Source of the DNA: a virus
Virus record (IMG/VR): IMGVR_UViG_3300014874_000001
Coordinates: 1-64,000 of that record
Strand: one strand, 5' to 3'
Length of the DNA: 64,000 nucleotides
Positions 1,735 through 62,157 of this stretch are shown here, piece after piece; position 1 is the stretch's first letter, and each line of letters starts with the position of its first letter. The notes beneath the pieces are model-generated. The model was given only the letters and a program-made list of their open reading frames with translations. It did not search any database and was not told the DNA's origin. A program made the translations under genes and the position numbers.

Positions 1735-1834
1735 GGAAGGGCAGAACATTTCGCACCCTTCATCTTCCCAAGCTCCGCAGCGAAGGCGTATCTTAACCCT
1801 CGCTTAGAACCAAAAAAACTTGCGGAGACACGAA

Positions 1835-2371
1835 ATGCCCCTAGTTATACTGGAAGGAGCCGATGGCTCCGGGAAGAGTACTCTTGCCACTCGACTCCTA
1901 AAGGGTACCGGACACCCTACCATACTCATAAAGAGATCGGGACCGCCCGGCAACGTCGAGACGCTGGTCTTCCAATCGGAGTGGATCGCACAGCAGTCCC
2001 GGCTCGGTCTAAACGTCATCGCCGATCGCCATCCGATTATATCCGAAGCGATCTATGCTCCGGTAGTTCGGAAGGTACCTGGACCGCACTGGGGTCCTGA
2101 GGACGCCTACAAGGCTCTCAAGCATCAGAGAGTTATGCTCGTCTACTGCCGGACCGACGACGTAACCCAGAGGGGGTCGTCCCACGTCGAGGACCAGATG
2201 GAGGGGGTACACGAGTACTACCAGGACCTCGTCAAGGAGTACGACCGCTGGATGGACTATATCCAGGATAAGGGAGTTCTCTTCTACCAATACAACTATT
2301 GGAACGATCCCAAGGCAGAGAACGTCACGGGGGTCATTCGTAACTTCTGGGAGGGAAAATGGACCGTCTAG
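1835..2371 (+). CDS. dNMP (thymidylate-type) kinase
   Basis: ATG 1835 with GGAGA at 1824-1828. MPLVILEGADGSGKSTLATRLL is a Tmk-type P-loop. The TTG 1820 extension was not used. Confidence 0.75.
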   Translation: MPLVILEGADGSGKSTLATRLLKGTGHPTILIKRSGPPGNVETLVFQSEWIAQQSRLGLNVIADRHPIISEAIYAPVVRKVPGPHWGPEDAYKALKHQRVMLVYCRTDDVTQRGSSHVEDQMEGVHEYYQDLVKEYDRWMDYIQDKGVLFYQYNYWNDPKAENVTGVIRNFWEGKWTV

Positions 2372-2955
2372 AGTCAATCTTCGAACACAAACTCATGTCC
2401 TCGGCAAACTTCCGCGCCGTCCAGCGGAAGCACGGCCTCATCCTCTGTCCTGAGAATCTATCCGCCGACTGGAAGACTCGCGAAGGAGCCATGGAACTGC
2501 ACAAGGGAATCCACTGGATCGGCCTGGAACTAGCCGAGTTTCTCAGCGCTCTACCATCCGAGCAGGAAGAGGAGCTAGCCGACGTGCTTCACTTTCTCGT
2601 AGAGTTCTGTATCCTCTGCGGATACGATCACACGGTGATCGACGGCTACGAGGACCGGCTCGATATCGTCTTCAACTCTTCAATCAACGACCCTCTGGTC
2701 TTCGCCGACTGCGATACGAACGCCCGGTTCACGATCGTCTCCGCGCTCTACGTCGCCGACATGATCAAGAACAAACCCTGGAAGCAGACGCTCAAGACCG
2801 AACGTGACGAGGACGACTTCAAGGCGCGGGTCCGCGGCCTCTGGTACTGGTACGGAGCGACTTGTCGGACCTTCGGCATGACCCCGCAGAGCCTCTTCGA
2901 CCAGTTCGTCCGGAAAGAAGAAATCAACTACAACCGAGTAGCGACTGGAGTATGA
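2359..2955 (+). CDS. All-alpha NTP pyrophosphohydrolase (dimeric dUTPase/dCTPase / MazG-like)
   Basis: Acidic helix EEELADVLHFLVEF and a KPWK motif, about 200 aa. GGGAGGG lies upstream of ATG 2359. Confidence 0.6.
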   Translation: MDRLESIFEHKLMSSANFRAVQRKHGLILCPENLSADWKTREGAMELHKGIHWIGLELAEFLSALPSEQEEELADVLHFLVEFCILCGYDHTVIDGYEDRLDIVFNSSINDPLVFADCDTNARFTIVSALYVADMIKNKPWKQTLKTERDEDDFKARVRGLWYWYGATCRTFGMTPQSLFDQFVRKEEINYNRVATGV

Positions 2956-3128: not shown

Positions 3129-3144
3129 TACCGGAGTATGAGTA

Positions 3145-3942
3145 ATGCTGACCCGCCTGATCCGCCACCTAATCCGACTCGAACCCGCATACCGAGGGGG
3201 ACTCTACAAGTTATTCAACGGTCTGACGTGGGAAGAGAAAAGGCTCCCGTCGTTGACCTACGACGACATCGGTTACAAAAACAACAAGGACGGACAGCTC
3301 CGAAAGAACTACATCAACGAGGAGGAGCTGGACCGCGTAGACAGCATCCTGAAGAAGCGTTCTGGAGGGCGTGGACATCACAATACCTCAGTTGCATTGG
3401 CCTTCCGAGGCGAGAAGAAGGCAAGCAAGTCCCAGGGGTGGTGCTTACTTTCGCTCGTCGTAAGCCGGATGAAGAGCCCGGCCCGCGAGATCGTTGAGAT
3501 TCACTACCGCTCGACCGAGGCACTCTTCAAGTTCCACGCCGACCTCGTACTTATGCAGTGGGTCTTCAACCGGCTCTCGCTCGATCCGGACGCCGTGAAG
3601 TTCCGGTTCGCGAATATCCATCTCTCCGGCGTATACCTCCCCGTCCTCTTTCAGTACTGGGACCAGGAGGACTTCATTGACTTCGTCGACAAGAACGACC
3701 GCGACTTTCTCAAGCGAGGACTCCGCTGGTTCCTGCGATCCTGCTATACGAAGGACCAATGGTTTCCCTTCTCGCCCGAGAACGTCATGCATAAGCTTAA
3801 CTGGGAACGGGGCGATCCCAGGACGGCCGTGAAAATACTTGACCCGTTGTTCCGGAAATACGGCTATGATTTGCCGAAGTTACACCACCAAAAAGACTCG
3901 TACGTAACCAGACGCAAGAAAAGCGTCGAGGAGGAAGAATGA
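3145..3942 (+). CDS. Highly divergent thymidylate-synthase-fold protein, function unknown
   Basis: ELDRVDSILKKRSGGRGHHNTSVALAF...QGWCLLSLVV...VEIHYRSTEALFKFHADLVLMQW mirrors the TS core layout (DQ..SRR..W / PCH..QF / RS.D / (N/D)). Cys is retained, with Asp at +33 after a 2-residue insertion. Confidence 0.5.
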   Translation: MLTRLIRHLIRLEPAYRGGLYKLFNGLTWEEKRLPSLTYDDIGYKNNKDGQLRKNYINEEELDRVDSILKKRSGGRGHHNTSVALAFRGEKKASKSQGWCLLSLVVSRMKSPAREIVEIHYRSTEALFKFHADLVLMQWVFNRLSLDPDAVKFRFANIHLSGVYLPVLFQYWDQEDFIDFVDKNDRDFLKRGLRWFLRSCYTKDQWFPFSPENVMHKLNWERGDPRTAVKILDPLFRKYGYDLPKLHHQKDSYVTRRKKSVEEEE

Positions 3943-4298
3943 AGCTCTGCCTAATAGGTTCTACCAAGTTCATGGAACTCTACGTCAAGGCGAACCGCGA
4001 TCTCACTCTTCGAGGACACATCGTCTATACCGTAGCAACCATCTCTACCAAGTCCGCGCTCGCCGATACGGAATCCACGCCGATCACTACCGAGCAGAAG
4101 GATGTCTTGGATCTAGTTCACCTCCGGAAGATCCAGGAGTCGGACGCCTGTGTTCTCGTGACGGACGACACCGGCTACTTCGGCTACTCGACTAACCGTG
4201 AGCTCATCTGGGCACAGATGAACAAGAAACCGATCTACACGATCCACAACATGGACCTCGCTGGGGAGATTGTCGACCCGAAGGAGCTGGCACTATGA
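3939..4298 (+). CDS. Nucleoside 2-deoxyribosyltransferase-like / DUF4406-like protein
   Basis: 119 aa. MKLCLIGS...HLRKIQESDACVLVTDDTGYFGYSTNRELIWAQMNKKPIY fits the NDT/Rcl-like pattern (..sD.vv....G..g.s.G...E...A...gKpi.). ATGA overlap with the upstream gene. Confidence 0.5.
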   Translation: MKLCLIGSTKFMELYVKANRDLTLRGHIVYTVATISTKSALADTESTPITTEQKDVLDLVHLRKIQESDACVLVTDDTGYFGYSTNRELIWAQMNKKPIYTIHNMDLAGEIVDPKELAL

Positions 4299-5278
4299 GA
4301 CCTCTTTGCATATACCACGGGAACTGCGCGGACGGATTCGGAGCGGCTTGGGTTGTCTGGAGATACTACGGTGGTCTAGTAGATCTCTTCCCTGGAGTCT
4401 ATCAGAAGGACCCGCCCGACGTATCGGACCGCCACGTGATCATGGTTGATTTCAGCTACAAGCGCGAGGTCATGCTGGAGATGGCCGAGATGGCAAGAAC
4501 GGTTTTGGTTTTAGACCACCACAAAACAGCTAGAGAAGATCTAAAGCCGGATGGGGGATTGGGAATCCTCGCTGTGGAGCGCGAACGTACCGGACAGCAG
4601 TGGCAGCGCTTCTGCGATAAGGATTGGGACCCCGATCAACGAGGGGTCTTTGTTCTATTCGACATGGATCGATCGGGTGCAGGTATCGCCTGGGACTTCT
4701 TCAACCCCGACGAGAAGCGGCCGACGCTCCTAAATCACATCGAGGATCGAGACCTCTGGAGGTTTAAGCTCAAAGGAACTCGAGAAATCCAGGCCACTCT
4801 CTTCTCGTATCCATACGACATGGAACTCTGGGATCGTCTTATCAATGACGTGAACATGTTCGGGACCGAGGAGATGGTCACCGAAGGTACGGCGATCGAG
4901 CGGAAACATCACAAGGACCTCGATGAGCTTCTCCGTATCTGCACTCGGCCGATGCGATTCAAGATTCCCAACATCATGAACACTCTCGTCGTTCCGGCCG
5001 CGAACCTGCCTTATACGATGGTCTCGGACGCGGGGAACATGCTCTGTCGCCGAACGCTCGACGGACAGCCGACCGATCCAGCGGCCGGTCTGAGTCCCGT
5101 GAAGCATCCGTTCGCCGCCTGCTACTACGACGGCAAGGACGGTAGGAACTTCAGCTTACGGTCCGAGGATGAGGGCGCGGACGTGTCGGCGATCGCGAAA
5201 CTGTATGGCGGAGGCGGACATGCCCACGCGGCCGGTTTCCGCGTGCCGTATGCTCAGCTCGCTCAGTTCGAGCCATGA
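4295..5278 (+). CDS. DHH/DHHA1 family phosphoesterase (NrnB/RecJ-like)
   Basis: IYHGNCADGFGAA (motif I), LVLDHHKT (DHH), DRSGAG, C-terminal GGGGHAHAAGF (DHHA1 GGGH). ATGA overlap. Confidence 0.8.
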   Translation: MRPLCIYHGNCADGFGAAWVVWRYYGGLVDLFPGVYQKDPPDVSDRHVIMVDFSYKREVMLEMAEMARTVLVLDHHKTAREDLKPDGGLGILAVERERTGQQWQRFCDKDWDPDQRGVFVLFDMDRSGAGIAWDFFNPDEKRPTLLNHIEDRDLWRFKLKGTREIQATLFSYPYDMELWDRLINDVNMFGTEEMVTEGTAIERKHHKDLDELLRICTRPMRFKIPNIMNTLVVPAANLPYTMVSDAGNMLCRRTLDGQPTDPAAGLSPVKHPFAACYYDGKDGRNFSLRSEDEGADVSAIAKLYGGGGHAHAAGFRVPYAQLAQFEP

Positions 5279-5457
5279 ATCGCGTAGACATCCTCGCACA
5301 GATTCGACGCTTTCGACTCCGCGCGGAGTCTGTGGCAAGTACAAAGATCAAGATTGAGGGAGTCGGAGTCATGACCGAGGCGGAAGCTATCGCGTGGATC
5401 GAGAGACAGTCTGAAATTCAGTGTCCTACTTGCGGACATCCTTGGGAGAAAGCATGA
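5275..5457 (+). CDS. Hypothetical small protein with CPTCGH motif
   Basis: Track ORF. ATGA overlaps at both ends. Confidence 0.5.
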   Translation: MNRVDILAQIRRFRLRAESVASTKIKIEGVGVMTEAEAIAWIERQSEIQCPTCGHPWEKA

Positions 5458-5849
5458 GGATCGCGATCACCGGCGTACCTCGCGGGGGCAAGACTTATAC
5501 GGCGAAGCTCCTCAGCGCCGTCCTCGGAATCCCCATGAACCATACGGACGACGTAATGCACCTGGAGTGGAGCGAGGGCAGCCGCGTCGTCAGCGAGTGG
5601 TTCGACCGCAACGATCCGTGGATCATCGAAGGCGTCGTCGTGCCTCGTGCGCTTCGGAAATGGAAAGCCCGACTCGAAGCCGAGAATGCCGACGAGTCAC
5701 GTCTCAGTACGCCGCCCTTCGATAAGATCATCGTCGTTCGCTACCCGCGAGACACGCTCAACTCCGGACAGAAGATCATGGGTAAGCAGGTTCTCGGTCT
5801 CATCGATACTTACAGAGACTGGATAGGAGAGAGGTGGATAGAGATATGA
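5454..5849 (+). CDS. Small P-loop kinase/NTPase (131 aa)
   Basis: ATG 5454 (GGGAGA upstream, ATGA overlap). MRIAITGVPRGGKTYTAKLL is a Walker A resembling the N-termini of phage dNMP kinases. Confidence 0.6.
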   Translation: MRIAITGVPRGGKTYTAKLLSAVLGIPMNHTDDVMHLEWSEGSRVVSEWFDRNDPWIIEGVVVPRALRKWKARLEAENADESRLSTPPFDKIIVVRYPRDTLNSGQKIMGKQVLGLIDTYRDWIGERWIEI

Positions 5850-6211
5850 TAATGCTAAACTTCCCGTTGGAGGCACTACAGACAATCGCGGCGGACAAGC
5901 TTCCACGCGTGCGAGTCGCGTTCCCTCAGGGGTCACAGATTCTGCATCTAGGCTCGGGTGGCCCGGAGTTCCCGGTGTGTCTCTCGGTCCTCGCGCCGAT
6001 CCGGCCGAAGAACGCCGATGGCACGATCAAGGAACTACAACCTCACGAGATTGCCGTGATGGAGTTTGCGGTCGTCACGCCGGGCGACGTGGTACCCGAA
6101 GGCTACATCTTCCGCGCTCCGGTTCGGACTCCCCAGGGATTGATCTTCCTGTTCGAGAAGAAGATGACGGGGCCGTCGATCCTCGTTCCACCGGGAGTAG
6201 GACGGGCATGA
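5846..6211 (+). CDS. Hypothetical protein (121 aa)
   Basis: ATG 5846 after GGAGAGAGG, with ATGA overlap to the upstream stop. Confidence 0.55.
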   Translation: MIMLNFPLEALQTIAADKLPRVRVAFPQGSQILHLGSGGPEFPVCLSVLAPIRPKNADGTIKELQPHEIAVMEFAVVTPGDVVPEGYIFRAPVRTPQGLIFLFEKKMTGPSILVPPGVGRA

Positions 6212-7038
6212 GAACCTACGGCAGCTTCGCTACGGCAATTGCGTCGGTTAGTAACCAGATGCGGGACGCTTCGTTCGAGGTCAATGGACTTAAGTGGCAG
6301 TCGATCGACGTATCGACGAAACCTGAGATGAAGATGCGAGAGTGTCTGAACGTCTCGTTCCAGGTCAACACACAGGGGATCGACGCCTGGTCGCACTACC
6401 ATAACGATATCAAGCCGAATTGGCCGTGGGCCGAAGATCATTTCCAGGAGCGAGTCGCGGGCGAGCCTCTGAACCCCGGAGAGCAATGGAAGAACTGGCC
6501 TTGGGCTCTATCGGCCGATAAGTTCCGGACCGAAGGCGAGAAGTTCAGCCATACCTACATGGAACGGTACTGGCCAAAGCTCGCGGGCGACGACGAGCAC
6601 TCGACCAAGGGATTCCTGCGAGGTATTCGATACCCTTACGGAGACCTCAATGATGTCGTCAATCATCTCCTGGGAGATCCACTTACCCGACAAGCGTATC
6701 TCCCTGTCTGGTTCCCGGAGGACACCGGCGTGGTCCATGGCGAGCGCGTTCCGTGTAGCCTGGGCTACCACTGGATTCTCCGTAACGGATATCTCCACAC
6801 CACGTATTACATCCGATCGTGCGACTTCTTCCGACACTTCCGCGACGACCTATACCTATCAATCAGGCTCTCGATCTGGCTCCTCCGACAGCTTCAAGAG
6901 ACAGAACAGGAGTCGGATCACCGTCGCTGGAACGACGTGAAACTCGGCTTCTTCACGTTTCATTGCGTCTCTCTCCATATGTTCATAAATGACTGGAACA
7001 GACTCTATGGCAAAGCGAGTCCTCAAGATTCCCGATGA
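6208..7038 (+). CDS. Thymidylate-synthase-family pyrimidine C5-transferase, dCMP-hydroxymethylase-like (Asp at specificity position)
   Basis: ATG 6208 (ATGA overlap). RQAYLPVWFPED...VPCSLGYHWILRNGYLHTTYYIRSCDFFRHFRDDLYL. Counting from the Cys: R+9, RS+20/21, D+23, FR+28/29, D+31. The track N-terminal extension 5977-6207 was rejected. Confidence 0.75.
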   Translation: MRTYGSFATAIASVSNQMRDASFEVNGLKWQSIDVSTKPEMKMRECLNVSFQVNTQGIDAWSHYHNDIKPNWPWAEDHFQERVAGEPLNPGEQWKNWPWALSADKFRTEGEKFSHTYMERYWPKLAGDDEHSTKGFLRGIRYPYGDLNDVVNHLLGDPLTRQAYLPVWFPEDTGVVHGERVPCSLGYHWILRNGYLHTTYYIRSCDFFRHFRDDLYLSIRLSIWLLRQLQETEQESDHRRWNDVKLGFFTFHCVSLHMFINDWNRLYGKASPQDSR

Positions 7039-7366
7039 CCTCACGTTCCAGCGAATCTACGACCGTGAGCGTAGCGGTCTGCGGTGCGTCGAGTACCAGT
7101 GCGAACGCTATCCGGACCTACGAATCCGGTCGCAGGGTCCGCCCGCCAACTGGTGGGACTGGACGGCCTACTACGTCGTGGATTCCGCGAACAACGTCGA
7201 GGGGTTCAGTAGTCTTCGCCGAGCTTACACGTTTCTGATGTCGAGACCGAGGAGAGTCGTACGTGACAAGAATATCCCGAGACGAGATGCTGATGGACAT
7301 CGCGTGGGTCGTAAGGCTGAGAAGTACGTGCCTCAGGCGTCAGGTCGGGGCCGTCCTTGCCGTTGA
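6989..7366 (+). CDS. Hypothetical protein; the 3' part overlaps the dCMP deaminase start
   Basis: Track ORF. Alternative start ATG 7007 (MAKRVLKIPDD...). The last ~35 codons are Arg-rich and overprint the next gene. Confidence 0.4.
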   Translation: MTGTDSMAKRVLKIPDDLTFQRIYDRERSGLRCVEYQCERYPDLRIRSQGPPANWWDWTAYYVVDSANNVEGFSSLRRAYTFLMSRPRRVVRDKNIPRRDADGHRVGRKAEKYVPQASGRGRPCR

Positions 7367-7778
7367 CGGTCGGGTCCTATCCTCAGGGTACAACGGAGCA
7401 CCCTCAGGCTTACCGCACTGTAATCCTACTACCTGTTCGGCGGATCGGCCCTGCGTCGATACCGTTCACGGAGAAGCCAATGCAATCGCTTTTGCCGCCC
7501 GCTACGGAATCCGAGTCGAAGGAGCCACCCTCTACACAACTGCCAGTCCCTGTAGGGCCTGTGCAATCCTTGCCATCAACGCCGGAATCGTCCGAGTTGT
7601 CTACGATACAGAGTACCGGGACACCAGTCCCATTGCGCTACTCAAACAAGCCGGAGTACGAATCGAACGATGGTCCCTTAATCATTCCCCTCCCGAGGTG
7701 TCGACTCTGCCAACGTCCAGTAGAATCTATCCGAGTGGAACCGGACGTGGGGAAGGGGATGCTGAAGGTAACGGCTAG
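7263..7778 (+). CDS. dCMP deaminase (ComEB/cd type)
   Basis: RISRDEMLMDIAWVVRLRSTC, VHGEANAI (HxE) and SPCRACA (PCxxC) zinc motifs. GTG start follows GAGGAG. Confidence 0.85.
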   Translation: MTRISRDEMLMDIAWVVRLRSTCLRRQVGAVLAVDGRVLSSGYNGAPSGLPHCNPTTCSADRPCVDTVHGEANAIAFAARYGIRVEGATLYTTASPCRACAILAINAGIVRVVYDTEYRDTSPIALLKQAGVRIERWSLNHSPPEVSTLPTSSRIYPSGTGRGEGDAEGNG

Positions 7779-7863
7779 TTGCCATGCTCGACAGGAGACG
7801 GTCTGGGTAGAGTTACAGGACCTCCTAAACTCAATCGCCCTCGAACCTGGAGAAGCGTTCTAG
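7633..7863 (+). CDS. Possible small zinc-ribbon protein overlapping the deaminase 3' end (start uncertain)
   Basis: C-terminal part of track ORF 7357..7863: ...PRCRLCQRPVESIRVEPDVGKGMLKVTASCHARQETVWVELQDLLNSIALEPGEAF. Third-position GC is higher than in the two competing frames by my count. Its TAG overlaps the polymerase GTG (TAGTG). The TTG 7633 start is a guess. Confidence 0.35.
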   Translation: MRYSNKPEYESNDGPLIIPLPRCRLCQRPVESIRVEPDVGKGMLKVTASCHARQETVWVELQDLLNSIALEPGEAF

Positions 7864-10412
7864 TGCCCTCGCTGAATCCCGCCTGTACGAAGTGTCCGCT
7901 ACATAAAACAACGGACGGTACCGTCTGTCTGGCAGGCGAGGGGCCGCGCAACGCGACGGTCATGGTCGTTGGGGAAGCTCCGGGCCGCGAAGAAGAGAGG
8001 ACTGGCCGCCCGTTCATGGGTGCCAGCGGACAGAAACTCAGAGCGGAGTTACGGAAAAATGGATTGGATGGGGATGTTTTTATTACTAACGTGGTACGCT
8101 GCCGTCCTCCTGATAATCGTACACCGGCCGCTGCGGAGATCAAGGCGTGCCGAGAGTACTTGGACTACGAGATCGCGCGCATTAAGCCCGAGATTGTCGT
8201 TTCGCTTGGGGCCACGCCCACGAAAGCGCTCTTCAAAGGGGTCGCAGCGGTAACGAAGCACCACGGCAAGCTAATTCCCCCGGACAAACACCCGTTCACA
8301 GGGTACGTCTCCTACCACCCAGCGGCGATGCTCTACGATCCGGGCAAGGAGGTAGACTTCCAACAAGACATCGCTCGGCTCGCGCGGATCGCCCGGGACG
8401 AACCCCCGCCCGACAATACGCTGAACTGGGCAATTCTCCGTCGAGGGAACCTCCAGAAGTTCCTCCGTGAGTTTCGCGAGGCGCCTGAGTTCTCCTTCGA
8501 CCTGGAAACCTCTGGCCTTTTCATGCACGACGGACAGGGGTGGATTAACTGCGTCGGGATCGGGCTGCAGAACCGCACATGGGTTATTCCACGAATGCGA
8601 CCGGGCTGGTATCCGTCGCGAGCGAACTCGAAAAAGCTCAAGTTCCACCGAGGCTCCCCGTGGTGTCGGGGGAAGTCCTTCGAGTTTCTCATGCGGATGA
8701 TTATCGGCATGGCGATCCGAGGGAACAAAGGCGTTATCGCTCAGAACGGCAAATTCGATAACCTGTGGCTCCAGCGCTACGTCAACCGTCGGTTTAAGAT
8801 TACGTTCGATACGATGCTCGCGAGTCATACGCTCGATGAGAATGAAGAGCATGATCTTAAGTCGATGTCCCGCAAGTATCTCGACGTGCCCGAGTATGAT
8901 CTGACGACGGCCGAGAAGCGCGGCATTGTCGATCCGATGAAGCTGTTCCAGTATAACGCTCGGGACTGCGGCTATACGCTTCGGCTAAAACACGTCTTCC
9001 AGAAGAAGCTGGAGGAAGAGGAGAGCCAGTTCCGGCTGTTCTATGAGCTCGTCATGCCAGCCGTCCGGGCAATGGAGGATATCGAGCTAGAGGGCAAGAC
9101 GATGAACGTCACGGCCCTAGAAGAACTCGGACTCGACCTTCTGTCCCGCGAGATCAAGCTTAAGCATGACCTCAAGGCCCTCGTCGGTGGAAAGGAGGTT
9201 AACTGGAATTCGCCGAAGCAGGTCGGTGCGATTCTCTATGGGGACCTCGGGATCAAGTGCGTAGCGTTTACGGCTAAGGGCGCGCCGTCTACGGGCGAGA
9301 CCGCGATCCTAGACCTCAAGGGTAAGCATCCAATCGTCGACAAACTCATCGAAGTCCGCGAAGTCTCGAAATTCAGGAGTACGTATGTTATCGGATTCCA
9401 GAAACTCATGGTCGAGGACAAGCTCTACATTTCATACAAAATCCACGGAACAGTTACAGGTCGATATGCCTCGCGTATACACTCGATCCCACGCGACGGG
9501 TCCGTTCGGAATCTGGTTATCGCGCCACCGGGCTGGAAATTTTTCCAAGCGGATATCTCTCAAGCCGAACTCCGAATCATAGCCCAGATGTCGGGCGACC
9601 TCGAAATGAGAAAGTGCTTTACCGAGGGAATAGACATCCACTGGCGGACGATGATGTTCGCGATCGCGGCCGGGTATATCTCGGGAGAGTACGCCCAGCG
9701 GGTAATCGACACAGCCGAGAAGACCACCGGAAAGAAAATGCGGATATCGGAAGCGTGCGACGAGCTACTGAAGATAGGCCACGAGGCCGCGATCAAGATT
9801 TGGCCTGGTTGGAAAGAGGCCCGGAAGAAAGCGAAGGCGATCAACTTCGGATACGTCTATGGAATGTACGAGAAGAAGTTCATACTCACCGCGAAAACCA
9901 AATACGGTTGGGAGCCAACATGGGACGAGGCACACGCTTGCAGGGAAGGCTACTTTCAACTCTACAGCGATTTACCCCGCTGGCACGACAAGCAAAAGAA
10001 ACTCGTGAAGCTGAACGGTTTCGTGAGGACCTTCTTTGGCCGTCGCAGACGGCTACCGGGGATCGAATCGAGCGAGAAGGGACTTCGCATGGAAGCCGAG
10101 AGACAGGCGATCAATTCTCCGGTTCAAGGTACGATTGGTGACTGGAAGGCGGCCGTCCTCGTCGAAATCCACGAGACCCTCGATCGCGATAAGCTCAGGC
10201 TAGTCGGAGAACACCACGACGCGCTCCTTGGCCTGATTCGCGACGGCTGCGAAGACGAGATGCTGCCGCAGGTAATCAAGATTATACGCAAGCCTCGGTT
10301 GCTTCAGAAGTTCAAGGTCCGCATGGAGATACCGATGGACGGAGAGATCGAGATAGGTCCGTGGGGCGCCGGGAAAGCATACAAGCTTCCAATTACAAAG
10401 AAAGTCGCGTAG
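7863..10412 (+). CDS. Family-4 uracil-DNA-glycosylase domain fused to 3'-5' exonuclease and family A DNA polymerase
   Basis: UDG4: CTKCPL, GEAPGREEERTGRPFMGASG, VVRCRPPDNRTPAAAEIKAC (4 Fe-S Cys), HHG, YHPAAMLY. Exo: FSFDLETSGL, AQNGKFDNLWL, YNARDCGYT. Pol: FFQADISQAELRI (A), RKKAKAINFGYVYGM (B), GEHHDAL (C). Start set at GTG 7863 because the 7779-7862 extension has low GC3. Confidence 0.9.
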   Translation: MPSLNPACTKCPLHKTTDGTVCLAGEGPRNATVMVVGEAPGREEERTGRPFMGASGQKLRAELRKNGLDGDVFITNVVRCRPPDNRTPAAAEIKACREYLDYEIARIKPEIVVSLGATPTKALFKGVAAVTKHHGKLIPPDKHPFTGYVSYHPAAMLYDPGKEVDFQQDIARLARIARDEPPPDNTLNWAILRRGNLQKFLREFREAPEFSFDLETSGLFMHDGQGWINCVGIGLQNRTWVIPRMRPGWYPSRANSKKLKFHRGSPWCRGKSFEFLMRMIIGMAIRGNKGVIAQNGKFDNLWLQRYVNRRFKITFDTMLASHTLDENEEHDLKSMSRKYLDVPEYDLTTAEKRGIVDPMKLFQYNARDCGYTLRLKHVFQKKLEEEESQFRLFYELVMPAVRAMEDIELEGKTMNVTALEELGLDLLSREIKLKHDLKALVGGKEVNWNSPKQVGAILYGDLGIKCVAFTAKGAPSTGETAILDLKGKHPIVDKLIEVREVSKFRSTYVIGFQKLMVEDKLYISYKIHGTVTGRYASRIHSIPRDGSVRNLVIAPPGWKFFQADISQAELRIIAQMSGDLEMRKCFTEGIDIHWRTMMFAIAAGYISGEYAQRVIDTAEKTTGKKMRISEACDELLKIGHEAAIKIWPGWKEARKKAKAINFGYVYGMYEKKFILTAKTKYGWEPTWDEAHACREGYFQLYSDLPRWHDKQKKLVKLNGFVRTFFGRRRRLPGIESSEKGLRMEAERQAINSPVQGTIGDWKAAVLVEIHETLDRDKLRLVGEHHDALLGLIRDGCEDEMLPQVIKIIRKPRLLQKFKVRMEIPMDGEIEIGPWGAGKAYKLPITKKVA

Positions 10413-10495: not shown

Positions 10496-11506
10496 ATGCC
10501 ACGTGTCTCGTATAGCGAAATTCGCCAAGCCAGGAAGTGCCCCAAGGCTTGGGACTACCGGTATCGACAGAACCTCAAGCGCCGGAAGCCGTCACGGCCT
10601 GCGTTCATCGGTACGATCCTCCACGAGATGATCGACGTGTGGATCAAGGCTCGGATTCTCCCGAATTACATGAACGACCCCTGGAAAATTCTCGCTAAGT
10701 ACCAGAGGGAGTACAAGGAACTGTTCAAGTCCGAGCGGGAGGAGTTCGGCGACGTTCCCCTAGTCGCGGAGAAGCTGTTCGAGAGCTACCTGCGGCGCTG
10801 GAGGAAAGACGGTCTGATCTACGAGTACAGCGAGGCTCCCATTATCACGGACCTCACGAAAGAGATCCGCCTGATCGGTTTCATCGATGCGATCGTCCGC
10901 GATAAGGGCGGCCGCCGGTTCCTTATCGACCACAAATTCAACAGGGTGATTCCGGGGCCTGCGGATCGGTTCTCGGATATCCAGACTCTACTCTACTACT
11001 GGGCCTGGAACCAGACACACAAGAAGGAAGACCAGATCGACGGTATCCTCTGGGACTACGGCCGGATGAAGATGCCCGCCGTCCCCGAGCTGCTTAAGAA
11101 CGGGCAGCTAACGAAGCGGGCGAATATCGACACCGATCAGCACACCTACCTCGAAGCTATCAAGGAGCACGACCTCAACCCAAAACACTATCGTGATATT
11201 CTCGATAAGCTGGAGGGCAAGGAGCGGTCGTTCTTCGAGCGCGTTCCGCTACCGGCCCCGAACAAGAAGATGGTCGAGAGTGTCGTGGAGGACGCCCGGG
11301 CGACGGCCGTGATCCGAAAGTCCCTAGGAGCAATCGCGCCGAGGCACATGTCGGGATTCAACTGCAAGACCTGTGACTTCCGTTCGCTCTGCGAGGCAGA
11401 GGTACGGGGTCTGGACGCGGACTTCGTAAGGAAGCGCGATTATACCATCCAAGAACATCAAGGAGATTGGGGCGATGCCGAAGAAAGTGTTGAAGAAGCG
11501 GCTTAA
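10496..11506 (+). CDS. PD-(D/E)XK nuclease, Cas4/RecB-like with Fe-S cysteines
   Basis: N-terminal ARKCPKAW Cys plus C-terminal FNCKTCDFRSLCEAE. IGFIDAIV...FLIDHKF nuclease core. Confidence 0.75.
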   Translation: MPRVSYSEIRQARKCPKAWDYRYRQNLKRRKPSRPAFIGTILHEMIDVWIKARILPNYMNDPWKILAKYQREYKELFKSEREEFGDVPLVAEKLFESYLRRWRKDGLIYEYSEAPIITDLTKEIRLIGFIDAIVRDKGGRRFLIDHKFNRVIPGPADRFSDIQTLLYYWAWNQTHKKEDQIDGILWDYGRMKMPAVPELLKNGQLTKRANIDTDQHTYLEAIKEHDLNPKHYRDILDKLEGKERSFFERVPLPAPNKKMVESVVEDARATAVIRKSLGAIAPRHMSGFNCKTCDFRSLCEAEVRGLDADFVRKRDYTIQEHQGDWGDAEESVEEAA

Positions 11507-12329
11507 AGACAAGAAGTCTCGCGTGGTCCGGGGGATCAAGTCGATCGGGGAGCTGGCCGAGAATATCGTTGCGCTGTTTTACGGGAAGTCCGGCCGAGGC
11601 AAGACGAAGACGGCGGCGACGTTCCCCGGGCCGATCCTTTTCATAGACATCAACAACGAGAAGGGGCTCAAGACCGTACGGAACGTCAAGAACGTCGAGG
11701 TTGCCAAGGTCAAGTCCTGGGAGGACTTCCTCGATCTCTACTGGCATCTACGAGACGGGCAGAAGTACAAGACGATCGTTCTCGATCAGATCACGGGTCT
11801 CCAGGATCTTTGTATGAAGGCGGTACGCGAGCACTTCCGCATGGATGAGGACGAACCTTTTCAGGGCTTCAAGAAGTGGGGTAAGCTCTCGGGCGATATG
11901 AAGACCTGGCTCCAGTCATATCGTGAGCTCTCCGACCTCTATCACGTCGTCTTTCTAGCCCACGAGCGAGCGTTCGACTCCTCTGAGGGTGAGGAGGGAG
12001 ACCTGGATCCGTCAGTAGGGGCTCGGGTACTCCCCTCCATCGGCGACTTCGTAGCAGGAGCCTGCGATATCATCGGACAGAGCTATATCCGGAAGATCAA
12101 GGAGAAGAGCAAGAAGACCGGAAAGCCACTCATCCATACCGAGTACTGTATGCGTATAGGCCCCCATCCGGTCTACACAACCAAGATTCGACGACCGCCT
12201 GAGTTCGGCCAGCTACCGGAATTCATCGTCGATCCCTCTTACCAGAAACTCGTGGCCATCGAGGCTGGTGAGAATTTCAACCACGTGGTAAAGAAGGAGA
12301 AGAAGCATGGCAAAGTCGAAGCCCGTTAA
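11475..12329 (+). CDS. Sak4-like RecA-fold ATPase (AAA_24)
   Basis: FYGKSGRGKTKTAATFPGPILFIDINNEKG ... YKTIVLDQITGLQDL. Confidence 0.7.
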   Translation: MPKKVLKKRLKDKKSRVVRGIKSIGELAENIVALFYGKSGRGKTKTAATFPGPILFIDINNEKGLKTVRNVKNVEVAKVKSWEDFLDLYWHLRDGQKYKTIVLDQITGLQDLCMKAVREHFRMDEDEPFQGFKKWGKLSGDMKTWLQSYRELSDLYHVVFLAHERAFDSSEGEEGDLDPSVGARVLPSIGDFVAGACDIIGQSYIRKIKEKSKKTGKPLIHTEYCMRIGPHPVYTTKIRRPPEFGQLPEFIVDPSYQKLVAIEAGENFNHVVKKEKKHGKVEAR

Positions 12330-60914: not shown

Positions 60915-61375
60915 CACCAGCACATCAGTGGTTAGCGATCGCGTTCTTTGTCGGAGTCGGCCTCATTCTCGGAGCGCTGGTCTTATGGAAGCGTACGATC
61001 TGGGCAAAGAAGAAGGACCTCAGTGGAGGGTTCCTGACCGAGCGGGAGTTGAACTCACGAATGGGACCGCCCCCCGATCTGCGTGAGAGGATGGGTCCTT
61101 CACCCGAGCTACTGCATGAGCGCTGGGAGGACTTCGAGCGCGCGAAGCGAACGCCGCGACGCGGACCGCTCGCTGTCGATCTAGCGCAAGAGCAGAAGCG
61201 CAGAGAGCGTGATCCACTCGACGAGAAGGGCTTCTATGGTCCCGGGGGACTCATGGGAGTCGGCGCGCTCGGGTCAATCGCGAACGAGCACGTGCATCAC
61301 TCGCCACCGGACTGCTCACCCTCCGACTCGGGATCGAGCGATAGCGGGAGCTGCGATTCGGGCGGTGGAGAATGA
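60911..61375 (+). CDS. Membrane-anchored protein with Ser/Asp/Gly-rich C-terminus
   Basis: WLAIAFFVGVGLILGALVLW TM segment. ATGA overlap. Confidence 0.55.
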   Translation: MTPAHQWLAIAFFVGVGLILGALVLWKRTIWAKKKDLSGGFLTERELNSRMGPPPDLRERMGPSPELLHERWEDFERAKRTPRRGPLAVDLAQEQKRRERDPLDEKGFYGPGGLMGVGALGSIANEHVHHSPPDCSPSDSGSSDSGSCDSGGGE

Positions 61376-62157
61376 AGACCGAAGTACTCGACCACGGCTA
61401 CATCCGTCTGGTATCGTATACGCAGCCAGTACCGGACGGGCTTGATAAGCATGGATGGGCCATGAGAGATCGGAGCTGGACGGGCGATCTGGAGATCGTA
61501 CGGGCTGCGCGCGTCTCGTACAACGCCGACTGGAGAAAGAACGACCTCAACCTCGGCCAGTCTTCCGACGAGAAGCTGATCGATTTCCTCTGGAGAAACA
61601 AGCATACCAGTCCGTTCGAGGCGATGACGTTCTCGTTCGAGGTGCAAGCTCCGATCTTCGTCTTTCGCCAGTGGCATCGGCATAGGACGCAGAGCTACAA
61701 CGAGGTCTCGGCTCGTTACACTGAGCTGCCCGAGCTGTTCTATGTTCCGGACGCAGACCAGGTACGGGCTCAATCGAAGTCGAACAAGCAGGGCCGAGAC
61801 GAGGAGCTGGACGGGAGGTCGGTGACTCTCTTTCGCCAACAGCTGACGGAGGAGTCGTCCTCGCAGTTTAACTCGTACCAGTTCTGGCTCGCCCAAGGCG
61901 TAGCAAGGGAGCTGGCGCGGCTCTACCTACCGGTGAACACGTACAGCCGGATGTACGCAAGCGCAAATCTCCTTAACTGGTTTCGGTTCCTAACCCTCCG
62001 CGCGGACCTACATGCCCAGTACGAGATCCGGGTCTACGCCGAGGCGATGGTCGCGATGCTAGCGAGCGTCTGTCCGATCGCGGTCACGGCCTTCCTCCGA
62101 TACAGATTCGACGTGACCGACGTAGACGCCGAGCGGGAGCGGAATACCGGGCTCTGA
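61372..62157 (+). CDS. thyX: Flavin-dependent thymidylate synthase ThyX
   Basis: FRQWHRHRTQSYNEVSARY (RHRxxSxxxxSxR ThyX motif), 261 aa. Confidence 0.9.
   Translation: MKTEVLDHGYIRLVSYTQPVPDGLDKHGWAMRDRSWTGDLEIVRAARVSYNADWRKNDLNLGQSSDEKLIDFLWRNKHTSPFEAMTFSFEVQAPIFVFRQWHRHRTQSYNEVSARYTELPELFYVPDADQVRAQSKSNKQGRDEELDGRSVTLFRQQLTEESSSQFNSYQFWLAQGVARELARLYLPVNTYSRMYASANLLNWFRFLTLRADLHAQYEIRVYAEAMVAMLASVCPIAVTAFLRYRFDVTDVDAERERNTGL

Follow-up and report, generated by a model that had tools for sequence, protein, structure and literature searches.

A diverged thymidylate synthase-fold protein without a recognisable folate site in a phage nucleotide cassette: what might it do?

What use could a phage make of a second, strongly altered protein of the thymidylate synthase (TS) fold beside a TS homologue of the folate type and a flavin-dependent thymidylate synthase? 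The question is raised by the IMG/VR virus record IMGVR_UViG_3300014874_000001, of which positions 1 to 64,000 were analysed (this whole stretch of 64,000 nucleotides is called the window below). The 265-residue product of the open reading frame (ORF) at 3145-3942 is referred to as the target and the second TS homologue, at 6208-7038, as TS2; both are encoded on the plus strand. We propose, with a probability of roughly one half, that the target, an offshoot of the superfamily of TS and deoxycytidine monophosphate (dCMP) hydroxymethylase, works without folate yet has stayed catalytically competent, attacking C6 of a cytosine deoxynucleotide and probably acting downstream of TS2. The features on which the question turns are the following:

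3145-3942, plus strand: target, diverged TS-fold protein of 265 residues (ORF, AlphaFold2 model, Foldseek, invariant residues)
3133-3136, plus strand: GGAG Shine-Dalgarno sequence of the target, 8 nucleotides 5' of its ATG (read from the sequence)
6208-7038, plus strand: TS2, folate-type TS homologue (PF00303 4.7e-4, phrog_160 1e-24)
61372-62157, plus strand: ThyX, flavin-dependent thymidylate synthase (Pfam Thy1 2.4e-49)

Fold and active-site core of the target

A preliminary description of this DNA, made from its letters alone, had named the target a TS-fold protein, and the ORF as well as every motif quoted there were found in the sequence: ELDRVDSILKK-RSGGRGHH-NTSVALAF, QGWC(100)LLSLVV, YR(122)STE(125) and HAD(133), with K48, Y56, C100, R122, E125, K129 and D133 as core residues. 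The fold itself was borne out by the comparison of predicted structures for which that description had called. A confident AlphaFold2 model based on an input of 37 sequences (predicted local distance difference score, pLDDT, 91.5; predicted template modelling score, pTM, 0.86) gave 86 Foldseek matches in the PDB at E<=1e-3, those listed having a probability of 1.00, and all of the 50 matches listed are TS, T4 dCMP hydroxymethylase or the dCMP hydroxylase AfhB. The best match is T4 dCMP hydroxymethylase (6l18, E=2e-6, template modelling score, TM, ~0.42); the TM-scores of the listed matches lie between 0.40 and 0.44 and reach 0.50 when normalised to AfhB (9iqu). In BFVD, uncharacterised phage proteins come first (PMBT14, TM 0.78), followed by TS and dCH proteins. 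As modelled, the TS fold of the target is thus real yet strongly remodelled.

Conservation was assessed in 137 diverse representatives of the family, which share 20-42% identity with the window protein. The only residues invariant in all 137 are K48, Y56, C100, R122 and D133, while Y121, E125, K129, F130 and A132 are conserved in at least 90% (E125 in 135 and K129 in 125 of the 137). From R122 to D133 the spacing is exactly 11 residues in every member, which equals that from R166 to N177 in Escherichia coli ThyA; from C100 to R122 spacings of 20 and 21 are commonest (38 members each), ThyA having 20. The distance from C100 to D133 in the target is +33, compared with +31 from C146 to N177 in ThyA. 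Every hhalign run sets YRSTE...D133 on QRSCD...N177 in the same register, and under relaxed settings C100 falls onto C146 and the helix formed by residues 59-73 onto helix G. The turn of the target reads Y-R-(S/T)-T-E, which places E125 at the position of D169, a position occupied by Glu in 135 and by Asp in two of the 137 members. The Cys, the R-S/T-T-E turn and the Asp had already been singled out in the preliminary description, and with Cys and Asp invariant throughout, the latter at the spacing of N177, this part of it stands; a fold unrelated to TS and homologues without the Cys, with which it could have been refuted, were not found. Judged from the alignments, the conserved pattern is more than chance, and we infer that C100, R122 and D133 correspond to C146, R166 and N177 (as N177D); Y56, just ahead of the helix-G equivalent, would then take the place of Y94. 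An Asp at position 177 is the established determinant of specificity for dCMP over deoxyuridine monophosphate (PMC13326640; PMC8670742).

A diverged branch of the family occurs in actinophages. In the six actinophages inspected, a "hypothetical protein" of 291-353 residues lies between the pyrophosphatase and TS2, and the homology of these proteins with the target family is clear from hhalign (probability 95.3%, E=2.3e-8, 213 columns). Y56, C100, R122 and D133 are kept, including the +11 spacing, but K48 is replaced by Arg, E125 by Tyr and K129 by Leu. The minimal conserved set of Tyr, Cys, Arg and Asp represents, as far as the residues can be equated, that half of the TS mechanism which serves covalent catalysis, the folate half being absent.

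In the order of the secondary structure elements, the N-terminal helix and the beta-hairpin of the central sheet are kept, whereas the segment that connects this first hairpin with the equivalent of helix G is missing. In ThyA this segment contains helix B with E58 as well as W80 and W83; in the target about 27 residues (32-58) stand in for ThyA 38-110, and E58, W80 and W83 consequently have no counterpart. The statement that the protein lacks most of its N-terminal folate and dimer region was accordingly right for the folate part and half right for the dimer part. The canonical C-terminus of TS is replaced by a different helical domain, roughly residues 162-238. Of the phosphate clamp of TS (R21, R126', R127', R166), the R166 equivalent is invariant and the positions of R21/K22 are mostly Arg or Lys (101 and 121 of the 137 members), and no conserved Arg pair is found in the family ahead of the T-S-V strand.

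Searches with the sequence itself placed the target in no named subfamily, as had been anticipated. Pfam and NCBIfam gave nothing meaningful, a phmmer search and two profile searches of the PDB were empty, and none of the 137 members matched PF00303, even at E<=1; the sole PHROGs match is phrog_34294, labelled "unknown function". In hhalign comparisons of the family with TS, E-values of 0.018-0.11 were obtained (0.018 over 36 columns for alignment A2, the target family, against A3), which never are significant and were used for the register only. No protein matches both the target profile (A2) and the TS2 profile. Close relatives number 54 in a set of 5.8 billion proteins, a search for contigs that encode the window protein gave none, and a profile search of 1.84 billion representatives (clusters at 50% identity) returned 366 at E<=1e-3. 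Two GenBank records call the homologues "pyrimidine hmase synthase", a label similar to the CDD superfamily name TS_Pyrimidine_HMase; all other records say "hypothetical", and a publication describing the family was not found in the literature. The target family is a large, widespread and uncharacterised phage family, a folate-site-less branch of the TS superfamily.

Linkage to TS2 and the replication module

TS2 and ThyX, both named in the preliminary description, were found as well. The closest solved relative of TS2 is MilA, a cytidine monophosphate (CMP) hydroxymethylase (PDB 5b6d, 3.6e-5). It keeps W80, W83, Y94, R126, P145-C146 and R166-S167-C168-D169, differs from ThyA by N177D, L143R, H147T/S and R127Q, lacks the last ~45 residues of ThyA and is predicted from these residues to be dCMP-specific. 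The presence of ThyX provides the phage with a route of its own to thymidine monophosphate, apart from both TS-fold genes.

Gene neighbourhoods were compared in 20 loci collected through the target (four GenBank phages and 16 IMG/VR contigs; seed alignment A1) and in 76 informative IMG/VR loci collected through TS2. The order in all 20 target-derived loci is deoxynucleoside monophosphate (dNMP) kinase, (all-alpha nucleoside triphosphate (NTP) pyrophosphatase), target, (orf119), TS2, dCMP deaminase, family-A DNA polymerase with a uracil-DNA glycosylase (UDG) domain (UDG-PolA), Cas4-like nuclease and Sak4-like ATPase. In the window this cassette, with the genes inserted into it, reads as follows:

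1820-2371, plus strand: dNMP (thymidylate-type) kinase, part of the conserved cassette (phrog_761 1e-17)
2359-2955, plus strand: all-alpha NTP pyrophosphohydrolase, dUTPase_2/MazG-like (PF08761 8e-5, phrog_12184 5e-16)
3939-4298, plus strand: orf119, nucleoside 2-deoxyribosyltransferase/DNPH1 (Rcl) fold (AlphaFold2 pLDDT 84.7; Foldseek 6evs 5.7e-5, 8rpt (DNPH1) 1.2e-3)
4295-5278, plus strand: DHH/DHHA1 phosphoesterase, inserted here between target and TS2 (phrog_4771 1e-98; weak Pfam DHH/DHHA1)
5421-5849, plus strand: small P-loop kinase-like protein (AAA_18 6.6e-4, weak)
7263-7778, plus strand: dCMP/dCTP-type zinc deaminase (PF00383 3e-20, phrog_174 5e-50)
7779-10412, plus strand: family-A DNA polymerase with N-terminal UDG domain and 3'-5' exonuclease (Pfam UDG 2e-32, exonuclease 5e-14, DNA_pol_A 2.5e-64)
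10496-11506, plus strand: Cas4-like PD-(D/E)XK nuclease (Pfam; synteny, end of the conserved cassette)
11475-12329, plus strand: Sak4-like AAA_24 protein (Pfam; synteny, end of the conserved cassette)

The co-occurrence with genes of the 6208-7038 type, a check which had been suggested beforehand, gave a clear picture: in the samples examined the target never was found without TS2 (20 of 20 target-derived loci, 26 of 26 GenBank phages). Seen from TS2, the target is present in 60 of the 76 loci, mostly directly upstream and with overlapping ends. All 58 loci of this set with the polymerase of this type carry the target, loci with the polymerase alone do not occur, and the two target loci lacking a polymerase match (L026, L064) end within ~1 kb past TS2; the closest GenBank phage relatives of the window polymerase are exactly the target-bearing phages. 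The remaining 16 TS2 loci have neither target nor polymerase, and their TS2 motifs are unchanged. The target was never seen without TS2, and TS2 is found alone with the same motifs; chiefly for this reason the target is placed functionally downstream of TS2 or in dependence on it. Two TS-fold proteins plus ThyX had been regarded as unusual for one phage; the pair in fact is the rule in this lineage, and MW202455 likewise has ThyX in addition to it.

Such linkage would also fit an accessory subunit, which, in a TS-like heterodimer or another complex with TS2, alters the product or the activity of TS2 without turnover of its own. Enzymes of the TS fold occur as obligate dimers in which the active sites are shared, the two genes are adjacent and often overlap by stop and start, and TS2 has lost R127 as well as the ~45 residues with which ThyA ends. 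An obligate heterodimer was nevertheless down-weighted, given that the motifs of TS2 are identical in the 16 loci without the target. Moreover, target and TS2 lie ~4 kb apart in two loci and are separated by four genes in the window, no fusion of the two was seen in the 323 proteins of the families that were compared (the long ones being N- or C-terminally extended targets or intein-containing TS2), and the invariant nucleophile Cys together with Arg and Asp argues for a working active site in the target itself. Among the rivals this one survives best, and we still consider it unlikely.

The slot of the target can be filled by another gene. Four target-less loci keep the order of pyrophosphatase or kinase, X, TS2 and deaminase, in which X is a C5-cytosine DNA methylase (PF00145; L035:5345-6703, L036:3964-6123, L046:5893-7011, L065:4915-6135, the last locus also containing an N6/N4 methylase). 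Neither the target-bearing loci nor the window yielded a related methylase. With four loci the sample is small and the replacement suggestive.

In the window the target TGA and the orf119 ATG share the sequence ATGA. No promoter-like sites were found from 1 to 12.5 kb and terminator-like sites are no commoner there than in shuffled sequence, for which reason the target is taken to lie within a long plus-strand operon. The tRNA and Rfam scans of the window gave no matches, and no convincing long ORF was listed on either strand of positions 1-1800, where a gene running off the window edge still is possible.

Proposed reaction and competing explanations

From the observed fold, conserved residues, spacing and gene association we infer the substrate and the reaction as follows. 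Arg122 (R166 in TS), together with the R21/K22 pair and other conserved lysines, would hold the phosphate of a cytosine deoxynucleotide, and Asp133 (N177D) would read and protonate the N3/N4 face of the base. The thiolate of Cys100 (C146) would add to C6, and Tyr56, the proposed equivalent of Y94, may handle the C5 proton. As the E58/W80/W83 segment is deleted and the D169 equivalent is Glu, or Tyr in actinophages, the chemistry at C5 should not be the classical transfer from methylene-tetrahydrofolate. The substrate could be the 5-substituted dCMP produced by TS2; a Cys-assisted loss of the 5-hydroxymethyl oxygen, for example, would yield an exocyclic methylene, which might capture another nucleophile. 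Alternatively, a cofactor-free reaction at C5 or C4 of the same nucleotide pool can be envisaged, and further options would be a cofactor-free addition or removal of aldehyde at C5, a deamination assisted by the C6 adduct, or the use of another cofactor, as in the flavin-dependent 5-hydroxy-dCMP synthases. Under both of the first two alternatives the reaction would precede the entry of the base into phage DNA via the dNMP kinase and the UDG-PolA of the cassette.

Several published observations fit such a pathway. Cassettes of a TS with N177D, a deaminase and PolA have been tied to full replacement of cytosine (bioRxiv 10.1101/2024.12.05.627091; PMC8670742), and their deaminases can be selective for 5-methyl-deoxycytidine triphosphate (5mdCTP) (bioRxiv 10.1101/2024.12.05.627091). 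That TS-fold enzymes can give up folate for other chemistry is documented by the 5-hydroxy-dCMP synthases (PMC13326640). A stronger version, according to which the family catalyses a reaction new to the TS fold, folate-independent and Cys-dependent, on a cytosine deoxynucleotide or on cytosine in DNA and in company with a MilA-like dCMP C5-transferase, is less likely than not and should be regarded as tentative.

A number of points weigh against our reading. The sequence link to TS is statistically weak (hhalign E 0.018-0.11) and the structural likeness modest (TM 0.40-0.44, root-mean-square deviation about 7 A), so that the residue equivalences rest on spacing, on the order of secondary structure elements and on the hhalign register. 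Of the four arginines that bind the phosphate in TS, a single one is invariant in the family, and H207/Y209 lack conservation; the ligand of the target may be other than a 5'-monophosphate. If the product of TS2 is 5-methyl-dCMP, little C5 chemistry is left for a second enzyme. The co-occurrence counts ignore phylogeny, and literature searches on phages that carry the gene (Serbin, PMBT14, P744, Muddy, actinophages) brought up no report of the target protein, nor of a product, a cofactor or a DNA modification.

Loss of the folate site and of most phosphate-binding arginines, together with the tight linkage to the replication module, could also be read as the mark of a protein that binds nucleotides without converting them. 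It might sense the nucleotide pool, regulate deaminase or kinase allosterically, or serve as the scaffold for a replisome-coupled complex that synthesises deoxynucleoside triphosphates (dNTPs). T4 offers a precedent for a dNTP synthetase complex. A regulatory pseudo-enzyme had been among the options considered in the preliminary description; it is disfavoured, the invariant residues being exactly the catalytic ones, and the nucleophile Cys with its Arg and Asp partners persists down to about 20% identity and into the actinophages. The acidic C-terminal tail, conceivable as a replisome tether, is present in 31 of the 137 members only and here coincides with the Shine-Dalgarno sequence of the next gene. 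This explanation, the second best of the rivals, seems improbable to us.

Slightly lower still we rate an action on cytosine in DNA or another polynucleotide, the target being a TS-fold analogue of the C5-cytosine DNA methyltransferases that deals with residual unmodified cytosine after replication. The PF00145 methylase in the slot of the target, seen in four target-less loci and neither in target-bearing loci nor in the window, points in this direction, as do the perfect co-occurrence with the polymerase lineage (58 loci with both, none with the polymerase only) and the missing parts (three of the four clamp arginines, H207/Y209, the folate lid), whose loss would open the pocket. However, the four loci are few, the slot also accepts unrelated genes of nucleotide metabolism, a methyl-donor site is not evident in the target, and its neighbours (kinase, pyrophosphatase, deaminase, DNPH1-like protein) all act on free nucleotides. 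To our knowledge no TS-fold enzyme acts on DNA, which we count as a further argument against this view; it is doubtful.

Highly improbable, finally, is that the phage uses the target itself as its classical, folate-dependent dCMP hydroxymethylase or methylase, with folate binding of an unrecognised kind and another role for TS2: the closest structure is that of T4 dCMP hydroxymethylase, the Asp at position 177 is there and two GenBank homologues bear the "pyrimidine hmase synthase" label, but equivalents of E58, W80 and W83 are missing, that of D169 is not conserved across the family, none of the 137 members gives a PF00303 signal, and TS2, with W80, W83, Y94 and D169, is the obvious folate enzyme.

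Related systems, carriers and neighbouring genes

Most of the pyrimidine modifications known from phages (5-hydroxymethylcytosine, 5-methylcytosine, 5-hydroxymethyluracil and recently 5-hydroxycytosine) start with a TS-fold enzyme. The proposed folate-independent reaction of the target is best set against these and some further systems. T4 gp42 deoxycytidylate hydroxymethylase (1b5d, 6a9a, 6l18), a phage enzyme in a cytosine-replacement pathway, shares with the target the order of fold elements, the Cys nucleophile, the R-S-x-acid turn and the Asp 11 residues past the Arg, which is of the cytosine type. Identity is 10-12% and TM ~0.42, however, and the target lacks the folate segment of the E60/W82 type and the R123'/R124' pair, has a different helical C-terminal domain and does not match PF00303. 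The flavin-dependent 5-hydroxy-dCMP synthases (AfhB of phage HY126, 9iqu/9iqc; RB69 gp48; DLP3 gp80; PMC13326640) likewise are TS-fold dCMP enzymes without folate transfer, and AfhB 9iqu is among the top matches listed for the target, with the highest target-normalised TM (0.50). These synthases are of ordinary length, recognisable by sequence and carry D169N with N177D, whereas the target keeps N177D with Glu, or Tyr in actinophages, at the former position; evidence for flavin was not found for the target.

In mildiomycin biosynthesis, MilA, the CMP 5-hydroxymethylase, works with MilB, a 5-hydroxymethyl-CMP N-glycosidase, and these two folds are again united in a single cluster by TS2 and orf119; MilA and MilB act on ribonucleotides in the formation of an antibiotic, and the target itself has no counterpart there. 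The dCMP methylase cassette of Xp12 (TS with N177D, 5mdCTP deaminase and PolA) follows the same logic in cytosine-replacing phages (bioRxiv 10.1101/2024.12.05.627091), but the verified 5-methyl-dCMP synthase of Xp12 is a full-length canonical TS relative, which scores 1e-8 only against the TS2 profile. Identity with the 5-methylcytosine system of the Xp12 type was rejected, because no homologue of the target is encoded in the first 50 kb of Xp12, where its nucleotide cluster lies, and because the TS of Xp12 falls into another clade. With the C5-cytosine DNA methyltransferases (PF00145) the target shares by analogy the chemistry of Cys addition to C6, an acid at N3/N4 and a nearby Arg; their fold is unrelated, and they depend on S-adenosylmethionine and act on DNA.

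A clade which keeps the covalent-catalysis core without the folate site, and does so across a lineage of replication modules, would stand for new chemistry at C5/C6 or for an unrecognised step of cytosine replacement. If it is a new TS-fold reaction, cultured phages of a widespread lineage have a cytosine modification or a reaction of the nucleotide pool that has escaped notice. The family also bears on the evasion of restriction and CRISPR, on sequencing artefacts and on enzyme tools in base-resolution epigenetics. Its carriers include phages that infect Serratia, Pseudomonas, Yersinia, Clostridium perfringens and Brevundimonas, and distant homologues are found in actinophages, the therapeutic phage Muddy among them; with easily grown carriers and a diverged form in phage-therapy agents like Muddy, the family is directly testable.

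Regarding the neighbouring genes, orf119, present between target and TS2 in 11 of the 20 target-derived loci, has G7, S8, Y30, D58 and E88 as invariant residues, and its modelled fold makes it a likely dNMP N-glycosidase. 5-Hydroxymethyl-deoxyuridine monophosphate is a known substrate of DNPH1, and orf119 may clear an unwanted nucleotide of this sort. The acidic C-terminal codons of the target (GAG GAG GAA GAA, within 3925-3942) also form the Shine-Dalgarno sequence of the overlapping orf119, a double use that may be part of the reason why E/D-rich tails recur among close homologues. The tail was considered as a replisome-tethering motif and rejected as such, since it is found in 31 of the 137 members only and the GAGGAGGAAG codons here are the Shine-Dalgarno sequence of the next gene.

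The DHH phosphoesterase, the small P-loop kinase and an unassigned ORF of 125 residues (window 4295-6211) are extra here and in the two closest relatives (L005, L006), and the gap between target and TS2 appears to be a hotspot for insertions of nucleotide-metabolism genes. Selfish elements appear to target the TS2 cassette: one TS2 homologue (P0246, 397 residues) is split by an insertion of ~130 residues that looks like a putative homing endonuclease or intein, and the Dcm-like methylase of L036 (3964-6123) carries intein/Hint and DUF559 endonuclease domains. In three target-less contexts (L072:915-1985, L091:5797-6951, L100:5874-6956) TS2 is preceded by a gene similar to those for inosine monophosphate dehydrogenase (IMPDH) and guanosine monophosphate (GMP) reductase (FMN_dh-like), a partner of another kind for this TS clade.

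Among GenBank phages, 115 were found to carry TS2-type genes; 68 of them are Gordonia phages, and the others include the Mycobacterium phages Muddy and FF47 as well as phages of Streptomyces and Microbacterium. The actinophage homologues of the target, encoded directly upstream of the gene annotated as thymidylate synthase, are L021:6123-7016 (Mycobacterium phage Muddy gp47), L022:5994-6911 (Gordonia phage Emalyn gp47) and those of L102-L105. Muddy gp45, annotated as hypothetical, is a protein of the dCMP deaminase family, and in Microbacterium phage Huwbert (L103:3444-5089) the adjacent gp67 and gp68 are both annotated as thymidylate synthase, besides the target-like gp65.

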